DNA from: Octopus vulgaris
Taxonomy: Eukaryota
Length of the DNA stretch: 64,000 nt
Direction: 5' to 3'
Assembly (NCBI GenBank): GCA_951406725.2
Contig: OX597834.1
Span: 45,384,001 to 45,448,000, forward strand
In this document: positions 3,085-62,525 of the stretch, in pieces
How positions within the stretch are numbered: the first letter of the stretch is position 1
Layout of the letters: every line of letters starts with the position of its first letter
Position numbers and translations under genes: made by a program
The notes under the pieces: model-generated
What the model was told of the DNA's origin: nothing
What the model saw: the letters and a program-made list of their open reading frames with translations, nothing else
The model's database searches: none

Positions 3085-4047
3085 TAACAAGGCACAAAAT
3101 GTTTCGGGAGGGGGCCAGTCGATTAGATCGACCCTAGTACGCAAATGATATTTAATTCATAGATCCCCAAAGGAGAAAAAGCAAAGTCGATCTCGGCGGA
3201 ATTTGAACTCAGAACGTACGATGAACAAAATACCTATTTCTTTACTACCCACAAGGGGTTAAAAACAGAGAGGACAAACAAGAACAGACAAACGTTTTAA
3301 GTTGATTATGTAGACCCCCAGTGCGTAACTGGTATTTATTTAATCGACCCCGAAAGGATGAAAAGCGAAGTCGACCTCGGCGGAATTTGAACTCAGAACG
3401 TAGCGGCAGACGAAATACCACTAAGCATTTCACCCGGCGTGCTAACGATTCTGCCAGCTCACCGTCTTAGTACATATGCTAATATTAATGACGATGATAA
3501 TAATGGCTTCAAATTTTGCCACAAGGGAAGCCCTTTTGTGGGGGATGTGTCGATTACATCGAACCCAGTGCTCAACTTTTACTTAACTTGTCAACCACGA
3601 AAGAATGAAAGGCAAAGTGGAACTCGGCTGCATTTGGAAACTCTTCGGAGGGCAGGCGAAATACCACTAAACATTTCGTCCAGCGCGCTAACGATTCTGC
3701 CAGCTCACCGCTTTATTGAAGATGAAAATAACAATGCTTTTTACTATAGGCACAAGGCCTGACATTTTGGGGGAGGAGACCTGTCGAACCATTGCGTAAC
3801 TGCTACTTAAATAATCGACTCCGAAGTATGAAATGAAAAGTCGACCTCAGCGGTATTTGAACTCAGGACGTAGCTGTAGACAAAATATCTATTTCTTTAC
3901 TACCCACAAGGGTAGTAAACAAGGAGGGGACAAACAAGGACAGACAAATGGATTAAGTAGATTACGCCGACCCCAGTGCGTAACTGGTACTTAATTTATC
4001 GACCCCGAAAGGATGAACGGCAAAGTCGACCTCGGCAGAATTTGAAC
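3085..4047 (-). mobile_element. cluster of SINE family B copies (tRNA-derived, CORE-like body), including tandem dimers
   Basis: repeated 'atcgaccccgaaaggatgaa.gg.aaagtcgacctcggcggaatttgaactcagaacgta', the reverse complement of a B-box (gagttcaaattcc) plus body. Confidence 0.85.
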
Positions 4048-9843: not shown

Positions 9844-10163
9844 GAAAGACTCTCGGATAGTTCTTAACTACCGGTTGTTCTTTACTGAAAAGCAGGCAAA
9901 CCAAAGGTTTCATTAGGGGCCTTCTCCTGTGACCAAAGCGACATTACTCTCCTTAGAATGCGAGCTATGCCCAACAGTGCTGTCTTCTAGATCACTTCGA
10001 GCCTGACTGCTGCTCCAATATTCTTAGTATGGTTTTCAAAGCTCTTGGAAACTGCTTCTAATGCTCCAGTTTCCACCAGTATCACCATTACTTTCCTCAT
10101 GCCCCATAACGTTCCTATCTCGTCCTACTGTGGCTGGTATTTCCCACTCTTTTCTCTTTCCAT
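9843..10163 (-). pseudogene. 3' end of an R4/Dong-like retrotransposon (RLE C-terminus plus 3'UTR) embedded in TAA repeat
   Basis: EREKSGKYQPQ*DEIGTLWGMRKVMVILVETGALEAVSKSFENHTKNIGAAVRLEVI*KTALLGIARILRRVMSL; the 3'UTR runs straight into (TAA)n. Confidence 0.85.
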
Positions 10164-20316: not shown

Positions 20317-21449
20317 TGCGAGGAGAAATAGCAGAATTATTGCTACACAGCACACACAAAACCGGAGCAACCTTGTGTTTTCAGAGAAACCAAAACACAG
20401 CGAACTGCCGAGTGTGTGAAGACTGATAAGGTACAATCGCGTTTCTCTCTGGCTGTCATTCTTACTCATGAAAGAATGCATCTCGAAATGCATGTCAGCA
20501 TTAGGCCTATGGAAGAAACTATTACAATTGTAATTGTTGTTGTTGTTGTTGTTGGTGGTGATGTTGCCGTATCTTTCCGCGTGCATTTATTTAAGATTTA
20601 CATTTTCTTGCTTAATTTTCAAAAAATCATATTAGTATTTTTATCATATTGCACAGAATTGGTACAGAACGAGGTATTTGTAATCATGTTTTTTCTTTCT
20701 TCGTTATTCTTTCTTGATTCATTCATTTATTTATTTGGTGTAACATATTCACGAAAACAAATGTGTTTCTGAACACAACTTCTCTGGTAACTCATAACTT
20801 TGAACACACTCGTCGTTCCAGGTGTGATAAAACACTGGGATATTTCCCCTATGAAGTTCACAGAAATAGAAATACCGAGCTAACGAAATTAAAGAAATTA
20901 ATCATTCTTTGAAATAATAATAAAAATTCTGGCGTTTGTCTCTTAAAACAAAGCGATATCAATGACTCGGTGAATAACAACTGGAGCAACACCGACAATA
21001 AATTTGACGCACACACCCCCCACATCAGACCTTAAAATTCTTCAGAATCCAAGTCAGATTGCAGCCTTTTGCAAATATTTTCTCCAGCATTAAAAAATCA
21101 ATTAACGTGTAACTATTTGAAGAAGAATCTAGAGCATAGAATTACAATGTCGATAAACTGGGCAATCTCCTGCCACACACGATTACACACGAACCTGAAA
21201 AGGAAAACAAAGAAATGTGTTGTCCAAATCATGGTGTCTTTCTGTGTACACCACAAGGAGAAATTCAATATCGGCATCATCAATACAGGGAAAGGAATTG
21301 ATTTCATTGAGAGAGGTCAGAGATCTGGCACAATATGCATCATATTAAAAACATAAGGATGGAGCACACGGCAAAGCACAGACGATAAGAGACATGTCTG
21401 TCCATAAATTAGTATAACCCTACACGTGTAGGAGAAAAGTGGGGAATAT

Positions 21450-22172
21450 CATTTTAGCCAGGACTGGGCAGCCAGAGGTAATATGATTTATTGTTTCTTG
21501 TCCATCTCCACATATTCTGCAGTTACTTGTTATGTTTCTTTTCATTACATGTTTTTGGTAATTTCTGGTGGGGAGGCTTTGGTCTTGTGCTGCAATTAAA
21601 AATCCTTCAGCCTCTGCTTTGAGTCCTGAGTTTCTCAACTATTGCTGGGATATTTTTTTGTCTATTTCTTTCGTATTTAGTTTAGTCCAGTATTTGCCAT
21701 GAAGGGGTTTTTCTTGCCATCGTTTTATTATGATCCGTTTCTGTTCTAGTTTTAGTTTGGATTTGATTTGTTTTATAGCTGTTATTGTTTCCTCTTCTTC
21801 TTCATATTTGCTAGGTAGTATGGCTTCATGTTTGTATTTTTTGTGTTGTTTTTTTTTTTGTTTTGCTCGTGTTTTGTGGCTATTTGTATTAGTTTTTCTT
21901 GCTTCTGAAGTAGGTATTTTCGCAGTCCTATGGTGGTTATTTTATAATAGTTTTCCAGCTCTATAAGGCCTCTACCACCTTCTATACGTTGTATATATAG
22001 CCTTTCTATGTCAGATTTTGGGTGCGGCATCCTAGCTCCTGTCATCATTTTTCTTGTTGACCTGTCTATTCTGGTTAGTTCATTTAGGGTCCAGTTAAGG
22101 ATATTGTAGCTGTAACATACAATTTGGACGGCTAGTGTGTTGATACCTATTATCTTGTTTTTAGCATTGATC
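21450..22172 (-). pseudogene. R4/Dong-like retrotransposon ORF fragment (end of RT through CCHC zinc knuckle), frameshifted
   Basis: NAKNKIIGINTLAV...IDRSTRKMMTGARMPHPKSDIERLYIQRIEGGRGLIELE and LKAEAEGFLIAAQDQSLPTRNY...CRICGDGQETINHITSGCPVLA. Confidence 0.9.
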
Positions 22173-32599: not shown

Positions 32600-32838
32600 T
32601 GGACACCAAAGTAACTGAGAAACTTGAGCAATATGAGGACCGAGCCAGAGAAATAAAGATTTTAGTGGAAAGCGAAGGACGACAATTACATCCGGTGCTA
32701 AATGGTGCAATTAGCACATCATCCAAACGGCTACGTAAGAGGTTGAAGGATGTTGAAAATGAGACACGCACTGTCGTTCTACAGAAAGTTTCCATTCTGA
32801 ATTCAGTATTATTACTGAGTCATATTCTTGAGATGTAA
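32600..32838 (+). pseudogene. R4/Dong-like RLE C-terminal fragment
   Basis: KVTEKLEQYEDRAREIKIL...PVLNGAISTSSKRLRKRLKDV...VVLQKVSILNSVLLLSHILEM*. Confidence 0.75.
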
Positions 32839-32914
32839 GGAAACTTATCCCCAAATCGCAAGGCTGTTTGTAAATACAGTTGCATGGAACACCGAAAATA
32901 TTCATACGCAGGCG

Positions 32915-35672: not shown

Positions 35673-36093
35673 TATGCAAACAAAGAATATATAAATGTAC
35701 ATGTGAATGAGTATGTGCGTATAAGTATGTCCATAACGCCAAGCATTTAAAACATAACGTTAGGTGAGGAGGCATACATATATAAAAACGTACTCAAGTA
35801 TTTAGCGTCGCAAATTCAATCCAAATTTTGATGAAAACTTATGTGAAGACAACGAAGGTAACAATTCTAAATTTATAAGAGCCGCCTGTTTCAATATTGC
35901 TTTATATGTAATTGTGAATTCCTGTATAAATGGGAATATGATTGTATATGCGTGTTTGTGTGAGGTGTGAGGTGTGTGTGTGTGTGTGTGTGATGCGATG
36001 AAATTGAAACACACGCGCGCCCAAACACATATATACATGTGTGTATATACATACAAACACGCAGATACGCTGATATGCACAATCACACACACT

Positions 36094-36134
<41 letters not shown>

Positions 36135-36177
36135 GCATATATATATATATACATGTATATATATATATATGCACATG

Positions 36178-36329
<152 letters not shown>

Positions 36330-36789
36330 GTACATGTATGTATGTGTGTGCGTTTCACATCAGACAATAATAGCACATGCTCGCTTGAGTGGATGAAACG
36401 AAGACATTGGGAATAAAGTGTGGATAACACCAACGAGGGAAATATTGTTTACTTCTATATCGAAACTGATTATTGGATTAAGTTTCTTTGATCCGTAGCT
36501 GTCCATTCTTCTATTCTTCCTTTAGGATGTTGTTATTGGGACAGACAGACAGACGATCAAGTAGACGACACCTAAATATGTGTGTGTGTGTGCATGTCTC
36601 TGTATTTGTGTATTTCTAAACGAATATATGTATGTGTATATACGTATATATACAAATGTTCATTTCTACTTAATTTTAGATATTGCCATTGTCCACCGGA
36701 AAAAAATATTTAGAAATATCGTTTCATTTTCTTCCTTCTTATCTCCTCTACCGCCTCCCCTCTTCTTTTTCTCCTTCATCTACATCCTC

Positions 36790-36879
36790 ATCTTCTTCTT
36801 CTTCTTCTTTTCTTCTTTTCTTCTTTCCTCCTCTTCTTCTTCTTCTTCTTCTACGTCTTCTTCTCCTCCTTCTTCTTCT

Positions 36880-36912
<33 letters not shown>

Positions 36913-36960
36913 ACGTCTTCTTCTTCTTCTTCTTCTTCTTCTTCTTCTTCTTCTTCTTCC
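36790..36960. repeat. (TTC)n microsatellite
   Basis: direct. Confidence 0.95.
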
Positions 36961-37274
36961 CCAGAGGATAATGTCGATAGCAACGTTCATAACAATAACA
37001 ACAAAGCCATCGTCGTTGAGGGTGGGCGTATCAACCACAAGAATTATCAATATAGGGACGACGAAGTGGAGTGAGGATGAGATGAGGAGAAAGCAGATGT
37101 GGGTGAGAGGGGGGAATCCCGATGGTTTTACCGAAACATAAAAACGTCAACCTAAGTCTAGAGCTAGTTTTTATAATAATACAGACTTCGGTAATCAGGC
37201 AAGAAAGACATGTAGTAGCCTTATTGATAACAGTAACAGCAACAACAACAACAACAATAATAATTATAATAATC

Positions 37275-37487
37275 CTTTTTACTATAGGCACAGGCACTGA
37301 AATTTGTAGGGAGCAGGTACGTCGATCACAACGACCCCAGTACTTGACTGGTACCTGATTTATCCACTCCTGAAGGATGAAAGGCGAAGTCGACCTCGGC
37401 GATATTTGAACTCAGAACGTAAAGGCGAACGAAACGCCGCCAAGCCTTTTGCCCGGCGCGCGAACTATTCTCCAAGCTTGCCACCTT
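37275..37487 (-). mobile_element. SINE family B copy
   Basis: 'gaaggatgaaaggcgaagtcgacctcggcgatatttgaactcagaacgta'. Confidence 0.75.
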
Positions 37488-37504
37488 GGCAATAATAACA
37501 ACAA

Positions 37505-37833
37505 AAATCATAGTCGGCCGGATAGTATCATATTGAGTAAGAGCGAAAAATACTGTCAGATCATTAGTGTAGCCATACCAAATGACATGAATGTTGTGAG
37601 TAAAGAGGTTGAAAAAAAATCACTAAGTATTCTGAACTGAAAGTGGAAATGGAAAAACTGTATGGAATACGAGAGGGTAATGTAAAAGTGATACCAGTTG
37701 TGATCGGAGCATTGGGCTCAATCCAATTGAAACTTCAAAACTTCTTAAGGCAACAAGAGACCGATGCAAGATTGATGTCTTGCAAAAAGCAGCCTTATTG
37801 GGCACAACGCACATCTTAAGGAAAGTATTATCT
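37505..37833 (+). pseudogene. R4/Dong-like RLE domain fragment with the PD motif
   Basis: HSRPDSIILSKSEKYCQIISVAIPNDMNVVSKEVEK, then after frameshifts VKVIPVVIGALG and IDVLQKAALLGTTHILRKVLS. Confidence 0.85.
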
Positions 37834-37935
37834 GGAGCTTCTACAGGACTAGAACTGTTTCATTCGAATGAAATCTTCAGGAAGCTTCCTGAAGATTTCA
37901 TTCGAATGAAACAGTTCTAGTCCTGTAGAAGCTCC
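37834..37935. repeat. perfect 102-bp palindrome centred on aagctt
   Basis: self-complementary about 37884/37885. Confidence 0.95.
37883..37933 (+). ncRNA. type-I hammerhead ribozyme motif (mirror copy on the - strand at 37836-37886)
   Basis: stem I agcttc/gaagct; CTGAAGA 37889-95; stem II t-ttc-attc-gaa-t; GAAA 37908-11; stem III acag/ctgt; GTA triplet 37925-27. Confidence 0.75.
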
Positions 37936-37953
37936 TTCTATAAAATAAATATA

Positions 37954-37987
<34 letters not shown>

Positions 37988-37988
<1 letters not shown>

Positions 37989-38145
37989 TTTATTTAAAGC
38001 AGCAGAAAATTCAACAAAATCTGTTACTCTGAGTTTCTCGTTGCCGTTCATCAGACAGTTTTTGCTAGCAAAAACTGTCTGATGAACGGCAACGAGAAAC
38101 TCAGAGTAACAGATTTTGTTGAATTTTCTGCTGCTTTAAATAAAG
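37988..38145. repeat. perfect 158-bp palindrome centred on gctagc, Penelope-like inverted pseudo-LTR remnant
   Basis: self-complementary about 38066/38067; flanked by TA-rich tracts. Confidence 0.95.
38071..38117 (+). ncRNA. type-I hammerhead ribozyme motif (mirror copy on the - strand at 38016-38062)
   Basis: stem I aaaa-ctgt/acag(a)tttt; CTGATGA 38079-85; stem II a-cg-GCAA-cg-a; GAAA 38096-99; stem III act-cag-agt; GTA triplet 38106-08. Confidence 0.8.
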
Positions 38146-39200
38146 CGTATTACTCTACCACTGGTATTTGAGTACTCTTTTTTCCACCTTGTTTCACATT
38201 TATTAGTTTACTCCGGTATATATTTATATATATAAATTTATATATATATTATAAGTAAATTTTGATTATACATATGTATGTATACGTATGTGCGTGTGTA
38301 TATATACATACATACATACGTACATACATACATACATACATATATACATACATATTAAATGCTAACATATATACGGAGATAGTTGTATACTTTGAAATAT
38401 ATGTATATTTTTTATTAACATATATATATATACACACACAATCACACAGACGCACACAACACGCGCGCGCACAGATACACATACACACGCACGCACTCAC
38501 ACGCACGCACTCACACACACACATATATATATATATATATACCTGAAACCCTATTAACAAGGTACTGACAAGCTTCCAATATATTTTATATACATGTATG
38601 ATATGGTCTCTTATTGATAATACATCGTAACTTCATACTTGAAGATCATTAATTCTAAATTGTCTTCAGATGACACAAACGCCACCGCGTGCTGAAATAT
38701 TCATCTTATAGTTACTCTTTGTCTAGAGATTTTCTAGTAGTGTTTCTAGATTTAAAATGCTGCAAGCGACATTTATAATGTTAAACGTACGTTCGTTTTG
38801 TTGGTTGCTTAGAAATACATAAGCTGAACGGTATAAAATGTATAACAGGTACAGATCTGTAAAATATAAGCGACAGCTGCAGAGCAAAATATTCGGTAAT
38901 AAAATTATATGTGTAAATGATTTTAGAATGATAAAATGAAGAATATTTAATGTGAACATAAATGTCTATATTGCGAGTGAAAATGGAGAAGAGAAAGATT
39001 TTTTGGTGAATATTCAAGTACATGTACGCTAATACGTACCGGCGCATGCGTGCAGGAACATACATACGGACATGTACATTGACACTCATTTATGCATACA
39101 TACGTACGTACATATGTAATACTCATTCTGATACACGTGCAGAAACACACACTCAAATGCATGCGCAGATTATATGTATGCACCAACATTAACACAAACT

Positions 39201-39240
<40 letters not shown>

Positions 39241-39562
39241 CTATATATATGTATACACATACATATATACATACATACATATATGTATATATATATATAT
39301 ATATACATACATATACATACACTTCGAAGCATCTACTAAATTCGCTCTTAAAAATTCAATTTTTTCTTAATATTGCATACCGGATCAGAAGATATTCAAG
39401 ATCCGGTACTTTTTACCCTATGCTTCCTTTGAATATTTCCCTGTTTTGTAACCCAGTTTAATTCAAATCTATTTGTTTCCAAGCAAAATGTTTCATTCTA
39501 CTTATTTCTTTAATGCAATGCATATCTATACATGTACATACATACATACATACATACATACA

Positions 39563-39647
<85 letters not shown>

Positions 39648-41049
39648 GTATATATATGTGTGTATGTATGTATGTATATATATGTGTGTATGTATGTATA
39701 TATAGACATGTATGTATAAACTATTATGACTGTTTATAATGTATATTTATATGCTTTGATTTGTTTAATTTTGTTAGTTTAAATATATTTGTATGGCTTG
39801 AGGATTTAGGTTACACAACGATTTAATAGATTTTGTATGGCGATGTTTTTATCTGTGAGAAAAAGAAAATTATATTTAAAATTCCACACATATTTTAACT
39901 CGTTTCATGTGAATATAAATTTTTGGAGATATTCAATTGCATCTATAAGATATTCTAATTTGAAGAGATTTAAAATCTATATTTAAGTAAGATTCCTTTA
40001 GGTCAACACTGTCACATATATAAACTACTTAACTGCAGAAAAATTTAATTGCTTTCCGACTGTTAAACATCCTACCTATAACCTTTCCGTTTATTGTTAT
40101 TTGATGCTTTTTTATATGCAAAATACATAAATGTAACCCGGTGAAAAATGCTTCTAGCATAATCCTAATCGATATTATAATGCAATCATAGTTGCAACTA
40201 ATGTTGTACACTCTGGGTAAACACATACAATGTCATGTGACTGTTTAAAAACATCCTGAAAGAAAGAAAGTTACCTCCGTTTCTTTGAGTTTGCTGTAAA
40301 ATATCTCTCAACATATGCGTAGTTTATTTTATTACGAAATCGTCAGATATTGAAATTGTACTTTGAACTGTGAAATACTCTGTGTTGTATAAGAACTCCT
40401 AATGCATTGCGATAAACACATCAGAACTGTATTATGTTTATCGGCATGGGGGAGGGCAGCACAACAGTTAGTGATACATTTGGGCTTTGTAGGTTACTAA
40501 CTTCACGCACTAAATTACCTTGGACGTTATCAAAAAAAAAAAGAAAAAATCGAACCCCTTAAAACCCCTAACGAACGCTGATAGATTTAGAAAAATATTA
40601 GACTTTACTTTTACTGAAATTAAAACGTCAATTTTGTATAGGTTCCTTACATTTAAAATCCTGCTCGTATAATACTTTCAAAGAATAAATGAAGATTTAC
40701 AATACCTACATTAACCTTCTGATGACGTATAAGAATCCAAAATACCTCGTTAAGACTTTACACTATCCTGCAGTCAATTTGTATTCAGTGGAAATTCGAT
40801 GTCTTAATGGCAGCACTTCATGGAAAAAGGTTACGAAGCCTAAGTGCTATGAAAAAGTGTCTACCTAAGTGATTACAATACAAATTTGGCGTAGGCGTTG
40901 GTGTATGTATGCGTATAGTCATATATGTATATGGGGGTTCATTAGTTCATTATAAAGAACCTTTGTACAAATATAGGCACGCACGCACACACACACACAT
41001 AGAGTTATATATTATACAGAGAGAGACATAAATACATACATAAGTACAT

Positions 41050-45974: not shown

Positions 45975-48340
45975 AGTACTTATTTTATCAATCCCCACAA
46001 GATAAATGCTGGGTGAAAGGCGAAGACTAAATTAGCAGAATTTGTATTGAGAATGTATGAAGCAGTGAGGAAATTACAGTATGGCATTTAGACCAAATCA
46101 TTTAAGCTGTCTTTAATATTTCAGTATCTATTTCATTGACTTCGGAAGAACGAAAAGCTAATTTGTACTTGGCAGGATTAGATCACTCAAAAAAAATTAT
46201 TCTGGTACTTAATTAATCGACTCTGTAATGATAAACGTTAAAACCGACCGCAGTAGGATTTTGAACTCAGAAGCTAATGCTTGAAGAGATGATAACAACG
46301 CATTTTACCCGGCGTGCTAACGGTTCTGCCAGCTGGTCGACCTATGACACTAATAATTTATGTTATTGGCACAAGGACTGAAATTTAAAATGCGGGCGAT
46401 AATTGTTCACATCGACCCCTGTGCTCAACCAGTATATATTTCATTGGCCTCGAAAGGATGAAAGATAGAATCGACGTCGGCAGACCTAGAACTCAGAACT
46501 TTATTATCGGAAGAAATGCTGCTACGCCTTTTGTGCGACGCAGTAACATTCTGCTGGCTCCTTACATCACGACATTCTAATAATGCTTTCAATTTTTTGT
46601 GCAAGGCCAGCAATTTCGGGAGAGGAAGGAAATCGATTACCTTGACAACAGTGCTCAACTGGTATTTATTTCTTCAGGCGGCGAGCTGGAGGAAACGTTA
46701 GCACGCCGGGCGAAATGCCTAGCGGTATTTCGTCTGCCGTTACGTTCTGAGTTCAAATTCCGCCGTGGTCTACTTTGCCTTTCATCCTTTCTGGGTCGAT
46801 AAATTAAGTACCAGTTACGCACTGGGGTCGATGTAATCGACTTAATACCTATGTCTATCCTTGTCTGTCCCCTCTGTGTTTAGCCCCTTGTGGGTAATAA
46901 AGAAATAGGTATTTATTTCTTCAGTTCCGAAATGATAAAAAGCAAAGTCGACATCGGCGACATTTGCACAGATAACGTAAAGACAGACGATTGAAACGCT
47001 AAGCATTTTGCTTGGTAACCATTCTGCCATTTCGCCGACTTAAAACGCTCTGATTATGCCAGCAATTTATCACCGTTGTAGAACCGGAAATTAATTTCCG
47101 GCTAGATTCTCTAATGAGCCAGTTCATATGATCATCCTTGACAAGATCAATAATATTGGTTTCAAAATTTGACGCTAGGTCAGAAAATTCAGAGGAAGAG
47201 TTAAGCTGATTACAACGACCCCAGTGCTCAACTGGTACTTATTTTATTGACTCCGAAAGGATGAATGGTAAAAATTGACCTCGGCGGAATTTGAACTCTG
47301 AACGAAAAGAGGAACGTAATCGCGCTAAGCATATTATTCGGTGCGGTAACAACAAACTGCTCAACTGAAGGCACAAAGAGCGGGCTAAGTAGATTATATG
47401 GACCCCAGTACGCCACTAGTACTTAATTTATCAACCCCGAAAGGATGGAAGGCAATGTCTACCTCGGCGGAACTACTACTCAACGTAGCGACGGGCGAAA
47501 CACAGCTAAGCATTTCGTTCAGCGTGCTAACGATTCTTTTGTACCCTAGGCACAGTTTTGGAGGAGAGAGCCAGTCAATAAGATCGACGTCAGTACGTAA
47601 CTGGTACTTAATTTATCGACCCAGAAAGGATGAAGGGCAAAGTCGACCTCGGCGGAATTTGAACTCGGAACGTAGCAGCAGACGAAATACCTATTTCTTT
47701 TACTACCCACAAGAGGCTTAACACAGAGAGGACAAACAAGGACAGACAAACCGATTAAGTCGATTATTCGACCCCAGTGCGTAACTGGTACTAATTTAAT
47801 CGACCCCGAAAGGAAGAAAGGCAAAGTCGACCTCGGTGGAGTTTGAACTCAAAACGTAACAGCAGACGAAATGTTGCTAAACATTTCGCCTGGTGTGCTA
47901 ACTTTTCTGCCAACTCACCGACTTTCGGCACTCTAATAATGCGTTCTGCTGGAGGTAAAAGGCTTGAAATTTGTGGGGAGGGGACCAGTCGATTACATCG
48001 ACCCCAGCGTTTTTCTGTTACTTAATTTATCAGCCCGAAAGGATGGAAGGCAAAGTCGACCTCGGCGGAATGTTAACTCAGAATGTGAAGACAGACGAAA
48101 TATATATTTCTTTACTACCCACAAGGGACTACACACAGAGAAGACAAACAAGGATAGACAAACGGATTAAATTGATTATATCGACCCCAGTGCGTAACTG
48201 ATACTTATTTACTCGACCCCGAAAGGATGAAAGGCAAAGTCGACCTCGGCGGAGTTTGAACTCAGAACGTAACAGCAGACGAAATGTTGCCAAACATTTC
48301 GCCTGGCGTGCTAACGTTTCTGCCAACTCACCGCCTTACG
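45975..48340 (-). mobile_element. dense array of about ten SINE family B copies (mostly - strand; one + copy at 46677-46912)
   Basis: repeated 'aaagtcgacctcggcggaatttgaactc' bodies and 'acccacaagg...acaaggacagacaaacggattaa' tails. Confidence 0.85.
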
Positions 48341-60699: not shown

Positions 60700-61155
60700 T
60701 TCTAGGCACAAGGCCCGAATGTTTGGGGGAGAAACGTCTAGTCGATCAGATCAACCCCATTACGCAACTGGTACTTTATTTATCGACCCCGAAAGGATGA
60801 AAGGCAAAGATGACCTCGGCGGAATTTGGACTCAGAACATAAAGACAGTCGAAATACCTATTTCTTTATTACCCACAAGGGGCTAAACACAGAGGGGACA
60901 AACAAGGACAGACATAGGTATTAAGTCGATTACATCGACCCCAGTGCGCAACTGGTACTTAATTTATCGACCCCGAAAGGATGAAAGGCAAAGTCGACCT
61001 CGGCGGAATTTGAACTCACAACGTAACGCAGACGAAATAGCGCTAAGCATTTCGCCCGGTGTGGTAAGGTTTCTTATTTCTTTACTGCCCACAAGGGGCT
61101 ACACACAGAAGAGACAAACAAGGTGTAGTAACGTATATGCCAGTTCGCCGCCTTT
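60700..61155 (-). mobile_element. tandem SINE family B multimer
   Basis: two bodies joined at 'gaaatacctatttctttattacccacaagggg'; an extra tail fragment at 61070-61120. Confidence 0.85.
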
Positions 61156-62330: not shown

Positions 62331-62525
62331 GTAATAATAATAAGGACATCGGAAAATGCCTTGGGAATGAGAACCCAGGTTCGAAATTTCCCCAAGACAC
62401 CTGAAGAAGGCTGGAGGATATATCAGCCGAAACATTAACAACAAACAAGATGAGGACAAATATCTATCAAATGTAAATAATGTAAATAATGTGCATTATT
62501 CCTCATCTCTTAAATATAGAATTGT
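62205..62525 (+). mobile_element. chimeric element: tRNA-like head, (TAA)n, then a hammerhead-bearing Penelope-like tail
   Basis: B box 'gagttcgattcc' ~62254; CTGAAGA-a-ggctg...cagcc-GAAAC at 62401-62433. Confidence 0.6.

Follow-up and report, generated by a model that had tools for sequence, protein, structure and literature searches.

Two stacked perfect palindromes with hammerhead ribozyme motifs as highly probable head-to-head inserts of Hydra-type Penelope-like elements

Inserted Penelope-like elements (PLEs) often come with a second copy that is inverted and truncated at the 5' end, and with a one-sided tail (PMC8557442). Head-to-head palindromic junctions have been described as the most frequent form and interpreted as the result of self-priming (PMC3846280). 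Pairs of hammerhead ribozyme motifs lying 100-700 bp apart on opposite strands were noted in 2014, and the same source describes dimeric PLE hammerheads in which stem III/loop III pairs between copies (PMC4209133). A PLE protein studied in vitro nicked AT-rich DNA on both strands and extended them, its reverse transcriptase (RT) started at two sites that delimit the tail, and hammerhead cleavage was dispensable for insertion (PMC11167929). The Hydra clade of PLEs, characterised at the protein level by RWK, DKT and CxCX5C linker motifs, by the lack of CCHH and by its place in the RT phylogeny, is of particular relevance here. A (TA)n target is given in 26 of the 27 Hydra rows of File S1 of PMC8557442 and, counting by eye, stem III reads ACTC-N-GAGT in five and ACAG-NN-CTGT in four of 25 Hydra families; in the same 25 (File S2) the base of stem II is U·U in 14 and A·A in none. 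One described element, Penelope-13_HM, shows the motif on both strands and a 5'-truncated copy in inverted orientation (PMC8557442). PLEs make up 6.83% of an octopus genome, in 190 families (PMC13282606). Outside the PLEs, the axolotl hammerhead HHR_Amex2, which is also U·U at this position, was 22% cleaved in an hour as a monomer and performed better as a dimer (PMC7229834).

The 64-kb stretch of DNA analysed here (the window) is AT-rich and animal-like, and full of microsatellites and SINE-like repeats; the repeats resemble those of octopuses. It contains two complex perfect palindromes and no others, each with its own hammerhead family (families 1 and 2, in units 1 and 2). The features of the locus, with scores from the covariance model R1 described below, are as follows.

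37270 to 37490, + strand: SINE-like repeat copy, 65-81% identical to many window copies (blastn of the window against itself)
37505 to 37834, + strand: 3' end of a non-LTR retrotransposon ORF, frameshifted, R2-superfamily-like (..VIPVVIGALG..ALLGTTHILRKVLS)
37834 to 37935: palindrome 1, arm 51 nt, loop-less, centre between 37884 and 37885
37834 to 37884, - strand: left arm of palindrome 1, inverted family 1 copy, core 37880 to 37842, model R1 E=0.02
37885 to 37935, + strand: right arm of palindrome 1 with hammerhead 1, core 37889-37895, model R1 E=5e-4
37936 to 37955, + strand: extension of the right arm only, seen in the sequence, with AATAAA and running into the TA repeat
37956 to 37987: spacer, a (TA)16 run, both the end of unit 1 and the left target of unit 2
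37988 to 38145: palindrome 2, arm 79 nt, loop-less, centre between 38066 and 38067
37988 to 38066, - strand: left arm of palindrome 2, inverted family 2 copy, core 38054 to 38025
38067 to 38145, + strand: right arm of palindrome 2 with hammerhead 2, core 38079-38085, model R1 E=7e-10
38146 to 38216, + strand: unit 2 tail, on one side only, 71 nt, followed by TA-rich DNA

When the window was shuffled 30 times with dinucleotides preserved, no palindrome arm exceeded 11 nt. Both strands were searched with a type-I hammerhead descriptor (CUGANGA, GAAA, UH, stem I of at least 4 bp, stem III of at least 3 bp), which gave exactly four matches: 37889-37927 and 38079-38108 on the + strand, and 37880-37842 and 38054-38025 on the - strand. 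Shuffles gave a mean of 0.09 matches, and none out of 200 contained four. The four motifs represent two distinct sequences, each present on both strands. An earlier note on this DNA had placed both palindromes and their TA-rich spacer correctly, and its claims of a mirrored type-I hammerhead in each, of GUA triplets ending at 37927 and 38108, and of U·U and A·A mismatches closing stem II (10.1/11.1) all hold; it left out the unit 2 tail (38146-38216) and the adjoining retrotransposon 3' end (~37505-37834).

Both motifs possess CUGANGA, GAAA, a UH site and the three stems of a type-I hammerhead, with stem I open, and in both the G10.1-C11.1 pair that closes stem II is absent. Hammerhead 1 has U·U at 37896/37907, a 3-bp stem II, GAAA at 37908-37911 and a stem III of ACAG..CUGU, with a predicted cut after 37927. 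Hammerhead 2 has a 12-bp stem I with one mismatch, beginning at the palindrome centre, A·A at 38086/38095 and stem III ACUC-A-GAGU, and is predicted to be cut after 38108; the predicted cuts fall at the ends of the GUA triplets. The Rfam search suggested by the earlier note matched no hammerhead family at E<=5-10, either with 36000-40000 or with each arm alone. Matches to Rfam miRNA families were below the gathering score and were rejected as a product of palindromy or TA repeats. Comparison of the window with itself (blastn) revealed no second copy of either family, and no direct (head-to-tail) repeat of either arm is present in the window. A third hammerhead-like core, at 62396-62440 (+), belongs to another repeat family: it is of the minimal PLE type, with an extra A after the core, GAAA, and a G-C pair closing a 5-6-bp stem II, its stems I and III are degenerate, and model R1 gives it no score.

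Model R1 rests on eight motifs retrieved from metagenome contigs that contain DNA of other animals (L006, a duplicate of L004, was left out of alignment A1). It ranks the four window motifs first (E of 7e-10 twice, 5e-4 and 0.02; next match 1.3), a score that is independent for motif 1 and partly circular for motif 2, since training loci were found via its stem III. Within the eight motifs, 6 of 12 stem pairs change on both sides, 75% of pairing cells can pair vs 31-50% when the alignment is slid, and the base of stem II is U·U in six, U·G in one and G-C in one. Loci L002 and L004 are themselves head-to-head pairs with diverged arms, those of L002 down to 82% identity. A different arrangement was seen at L001 (130-377), where two hammerheads of the same type, both U·U and 79% identical, lie in direct tandem 144 nt apart, as in a partial pLTR tandem or a retrozyme-like dimer. 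Motif 1 had no matches in prokaryote genomes, and its four matches in viral contigs (L008-L011) lack stem I and were dismissed as chance. Motif 2 was absent from viral contigs and matched six times in prokaryote genomes; three of these (L015-L017) lie inside bacterial or archaeal coding DNA and were dropped, and L012-L014 were kept, L012 and L014 overlapping on one contig. The kept loci consist of animal-like DNA filed in a bacterial genome bin, with several nested Penelope-like ORFs and TA microsatellites, and are likely to be host contamination of the bin. L012 also contains a 163-bp palindrome of 97% identity (2404-2565).

These loci offer a comparison between palindrome 2 and the Hydra clade. 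The ORF at L012-L014 is of Hydra type, with RT motifs, a CxCX5C linker (the motif is present in the relatives L012 and L013) and a GIY-YIG match in Pfam (E=3e-4, 21.3 bits) just under the curated cut-off. The L012 hammerhead, ACTGT-CTGATGA..GAAACTCGGAGTAACAG, lies ~160 nt behind a piece of endonuclease ORF that is 49% identical to the neighbouring RT/GIY-YIG ORF, and by eye it matches both the Hydra-2_aMil row of File S2 and the 3' end that precedes Hydra-1_Obim in the supplement of PMC8557442. L012 is, moreover, built like palindrome 2: its copies are head-to-head, one stopping in (TA)n, 6-7 nt short of CTCTAC, and the other arm carrying CTCTAC..GTATTGAGCACT and a tail of ~70 nt. In unit 2 the tail-less end likewise lies 7 nt before CTCTAC (38153), the first letters of the tail motif CTCTAC..GTATTTGAGTACT (38153-38176), and the left arm stops at the same terminus (the mirror of 38145), adjoining (TA)n. 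CTCTAC together with its partner motif occurs only once in the window, so that family 1 lacks this tail motif at the locus; L005 and L002 share it downstream. Unit 2 is flanked by TA runs and unit 1 ends in (TA)16. A possible stem-loop in the unit 2 tail folds no better than shuffled sequence (z of -0.19 and 0.39).

Given its stem III, (TA)n target, 7-nt offset to CTCTAC and one-sided tail as in L012, unit 2 is, on a diagnosis by comparison of hammerhead and tail motif rather than by a published definition, very likely the scar of a Hydra-type PLE; judged from the ribozyme by itself, unit 1 is likely to be one too. No PLE ORF linked to either family was detected in the window by tblastn. Neither window motif matches the published Hydra-1_Obim hammerhead, and a motif search of the accessible supplements of PMC8557442 and PMC13282606, where line breaks in the FASTA files could hide a match, found neither family. 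A literature search, which did not extend to the repeat libraries Repbase and Dfam, found no paper on these two families, and the passages of the PLE literature consulted describe neither a fixed 7-nt offset nor a 70-nt tail. Families 1 and 2 are thus probably two unnamed Hydra-like families.

The behaviour of these families elsewhere was examined by placing DNA-type contigs from four sequencing runs, which represent three coded organisms and at most four studies, onto the window, the summed depth not being a copy number. In all four runs both arms and the tail are covered by many contigs, with summed depths of 1e4-2.5e6, and families 1 and 2 are dispersed, highly repeated families. Depth drops toward centre 2, from 937k, 769k, 1282k and 78k at 38113 to 15k, 97k, 36k and 7k at 38069 in the respective runs. 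Joints from the left arm to the right arm or tail lie at other positions in 11 of the 15 listed (92 in all), each resting on one or two contigs with short sides mostly under 30 letters; head-to-head joints therefore recur with variable centres. Contigs run into (TA)n after 38145 (21 in run X2, 44 in X4), mirroring the end of the left arm at 37988, and 26 X1 contigs end in (TA)n near the end of the tail (~38216). Around centre 1, contigs continue along the left arm to 2 nt past the centre and then leave (12 in X2, 2 in X6), indicating that the AGCT at this centre belongs to the parent sequence, and they leave into different upstream sequence. Support at centre 2 is weaker, with four joints leaving at 38066-38068. 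We also considered whether junctions gather at the 5' edge of stem I, or 5' ends at the site of cleavage; the spread of the joints and the gradual change in depth do not support this. In other copies, contigs that leave the window sequence at 37886 show, on the sense strand, a pyrimidine-rich tract upstream of hammerhead 1 with AG at the start of stem I; this resembles the end of the Drosophila Penelope intron at helix I (PMC4209133).

The runs also bear on the mismatches at the base of stem II, whose mirroring in the two arms had been taken in the earlier note as a sign that the arms were copied or homogenised after the change. No variant is listed at 37896/37907 or at their mirrors, and in X1 the counts by kind of change are fully accounted for elsewhere, which we read as U·U being the state of family 1. 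At position 11.1 of family 2, G makes up 22-41% and U 17-37% of depth (39-61% jointly), with A in the remainder. Since U·U is a trait of the clade and A at 11.1 a common allele of the family, the mirrored mismatches do not date any copying or homogenisation, and the dating claim is unsupported: the mirrored mismatch predates both insertions. A base that is mirrored although rare in family 1 (0.1-0.5% of depth) is C37903/G37866, on both arms of palindrome 1, so that both must come from one template or source locus, or have undergone later conversion. Over 130 bp the arms contain no mismatch, which bounds their divergence below ~2.3%. The rare C37903 also makes the stem II region 37896-37911 a perfect 16-nt palindrome; four X4 contigs suggest fold-back at this inner palindrome in other copies, and A37900, a minority allele in three of the four runs, lengthens a competing hairpin in which the GAAA core is included.

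Upstream of unit 1, the non-LTR ORF at 37505-37834 is cut at its last codon by palindrome 1 and its 3' UTR is missing. Its nearest protein match is a 999-aa RT protein with the same terminal motif, the best solved relatives of which are R2 proteins. In the four runs, 67, 61, 39 and 48 contigs leave the window after 37834, all into one shared other sequence that is absent from the window. Palindrome 1 therefore interrupts the non-LTR element and is not part of it, which rules out a further candidate that we considered, namely that palindrome 1 is the 3' UTR of this element. The left arm of unit 1 is clipped 8 nt past the cleavage site. At its joint with the non-LTR copy the two share 1 nt, so the flank was lost by deletion, either during insertion or later. 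Further broken non-LTR pieces of this kind lie at 21300-22170 (-), 9940-10120 (-) and 32600-32840 (+), with a zf-RVT match at 21423-21638 (E 4e-6). The SINE-like repeat is very abundant, occupying about 30 places in the window (e.g. 3316-3459, 46676-46844 and 60922-61059).

Taken together, these results make it highly probable that the palindromes are short, 5'-truncated, head-to-head inserts of two TA-targeting Hydra-type PLE families, the hammerheads sitting near the 3' ends of the elements. Several observations pull the other way: no PLE ORF in the window goes with either family, neither motif corresponds to Hydra-1_Obim, family 1 has no CTCTAC motif here, A·A does not occur in the 25 Hydra families, the tail is longer than published, the Pfam match in L012 falls slightly short of the cut-off, the joints are thinly covered, no listed contig bridges a centre, and the rare C37903/G37866 is shared by both arms. 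The earlier note spoke of tail-to-tail inverted pLTRs as a form that PLEs often leave, which does not fit this locus: the arms are head-to-head, and their 5' ends meet at the centre. Its description of them as inverted pLTR-like arms is supported, and of its proposal that two PLE or retrozyme families are stacked at one TA-rich site the PLE part stands; the retrozyme part is unsupported, there being no head-to-tail tandem array.

How such an insert might be made is suggested by the in vitro work. The PLE enzyme would nick both strands of AT-rich DNA and prime a cDNA on each, using a different one of the two start sites that enclose the tail, and both cDNAs would stop early. They would then join at a self-complementary 4-nt word, AGCT at centre 1 and CTAG at centre 2, to give a loop-less palindrome. 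A joint at such a word would be expected because two identical single strands can anneal to each other only there, and pairing between two strands would be favoured because a word of 4 nt would need a loop in order to form a hairpin with itself. We lean towards this two-cDNA route. Self-priming of a single strand could leave the same scar and is a possible, though less probable, alternative; other routes seem unlikely. As to the order of events, the non-LTR copy would have come first, followed by unit 1, with loss of flank at insertion or later, and unit 2 would have entered the TA run last. Stacking at one site is expected since the elements target TA, and stacked insertions are seen in L012/L014 too. 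Rather more tentatively, the start sites may be fixed, the tail-less one lying exactly 7 nt before CTCTAC, a motif conserved between distant animals, and the other ~70 nt further on, with a dimeric complex and a 4-mer join. If true, scars of this kind would record how Hydra-type PLEs build head-to-head inserts.

It is doubtful whether the four motifs act as ribozymes here. In neither arm is the catalytic fold the one predicted to have the minimum energy (its probability is 0.005 and 0.00005). Stem III/loop III is predicted to pair more strongly between copies (-12.8 and -7.4 kcal/mol) than within one (-1.4 and 0). For a transcript across the centre, hairpins of -89 or -131 kcal/mol are predicted, with a probability of 0.001 that the core is unpaired. 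Hairpin and ribozyme folds are thus predicted to be mutually exclusive, read-through RNA burying the cores, and the ribozymes are probably silent at this locus. In the parent element, cleavage by the hammerheads is likely to be weak and to take place in dimers or with the aid of protein.

Three other explanations deserve consideration. The perfect 51- and 79-bp stems that read-through RNA would form raise the question, already touched on in the earlier note, whether the locus has been co-opted, being transcribed into a long dsRNA hairpin that serves as a substrate for siRNA production or ADAR, or acting as an element that cleaves itself in both directions. PLE copies do give rise to antisense small RNAs in a rotifer (PMC3846280), and the axolotl U·U hammerhead cleaves in part as a monomer and better as a dimer. 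However, the predicted exclusion of the ribozyme fold by the hairpin speaks against a dual role, nothing marks the window copy as conserved, and no Pfam-recognisable host exon was found in 100 of the 162 window ORFs that passed filtering, a weak argument where short exons are concerned. Family 2 also has C instead of U4 in 23-65% of depth and, as described, G or U at 11.1 in about half, variation that suggests relaxed constraint. We therefore regard co-option as very unlikely and, because the cores are predicted to be paired, a silent scar or, if transcribed, a source of dsRNA is more plausible than four working ribozymes.

A hairpin unit, MITE- or retrozyme-like, that propagates itself as a whole around one constant centre would account for the short distance between the loop-less centres and the 5' edge of stem I (4 and 12 nt before the core in the two palindromes). 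In L002, L004 and L012, too, the inverted copy begins no more than ~20 nt from the core, although this last point is biased, since these loci were picked by an intact core. But a unit that moves whole should not lose depth steeply toward its centre, as the family does, nor have other copies with other centres or contigs that leave centre 1 into different upstream sequence, and no head-to-tail array exists; such a unit is at best a faint prospect. Fainter still is the possibility that the locus has a single arm and that fold-back during assembly or library preparation turned it into palindromes. Structures of this kind do trouble short-read assemblies (PMC8557442), the arms are identical over 130 bp with one rare base included, and none of the contig pieces listed (32 of 28,586) bridges either exact centre or spans the stretch. 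Against this, fold-back would mirror the flanks, and each palindrome has different flanks to its left and right; the left arm of unit 2 has as its outer end a natural terminus of the family, reached by the 21 and 44 contigs mentioned above and found at the same offset in L012; and L002 has the same architecture with arms diverged to 82%. Head-to-head insertion of truncated PLE copies remains our preferred explanation.

On this account the locus itself is a described by-product of PLE insertion and is explained by known PLE biology. It offers a clean example of two Hydra-like families that are absent from the two supplements searched, and the fixed offset between the tail-less end and CTCTAC, shared with a coral-like relative, is a candidate RT-positioning signal. 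For the detection of ribozymes the lesson is practical, in that descriptors requiring G-C at the base of stem II, like the Rfam models, miss this very abundant class of hammerheads.

Comparison with known systems places the locus as follows. With non-LTR retrozymes (PMC7229834; bioRxiv 10.64898/2026.07.22.740005) it shares a type-I hammerhead without coding sequence and, in the case of axolotl HHR_Amex2, U·U at the base of stem II. However, retrozymes are head-to-tail tandem repeats of ~220-390 bp and are characterised by circular RNA monomers, whereas the window copies are inverted and single. Minimal metazoan PLE hammerheads (PMC4209133) resemble those of the window in having a self-complementary stem III/loop III that favours dimers and in occurring as opposite-strand pairs close together. 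In contrast, the extra base after A9 and the G10.1-C11.1 pair of their consensus are absent from units 1 and 2, and present at 62401.

The general PLE insertion unit (PMC3846280, PMC8557442, PMC11167929) has the same head-to-head arms, palindromic junction, one-sided tail, AT-rich target and lack of a clear target-site duplication. The one-sided tail is seen in unit 2, with family termini at both places; unit 1, with its clipped left arm, has only a 20-nt asymmetry. The locus departs from the general unit in that both copies are truncated at the same place, leaving a loop-less palindrome without the body of the element. The locus also resembles the EN+ PLEs of the Hydra clade (e.g. Hydra-2_Amil, Penelope-3_HM and Penelope-13_HM; PMC8557442). 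As here, these have a (TA)n target, a type-I hammerhead near the 3' end and an inverted 5'-truncated copy; stem III is ACTC-N-GAGT in unit 2 and ACAG..CTGT in unit 1, the latter with U·U, and unit 2 carries the downstream CTCTAC..GTATT(T)GAG(C/T)ACT found in Hydra-2_Amil, L012 and L005. Unlike in those elements, only ~50-150 nt of each element is left, with no linked ORF at the locus, unit 2 combines A·A closing with a 2-bp stem II, and unit 1 has an 8-nt loop III. The unit 2 tail measures 71 nt vs the 30-40 bp given in PMC8557442, and matches in this respect the ~70-nt tail of its relative L012.
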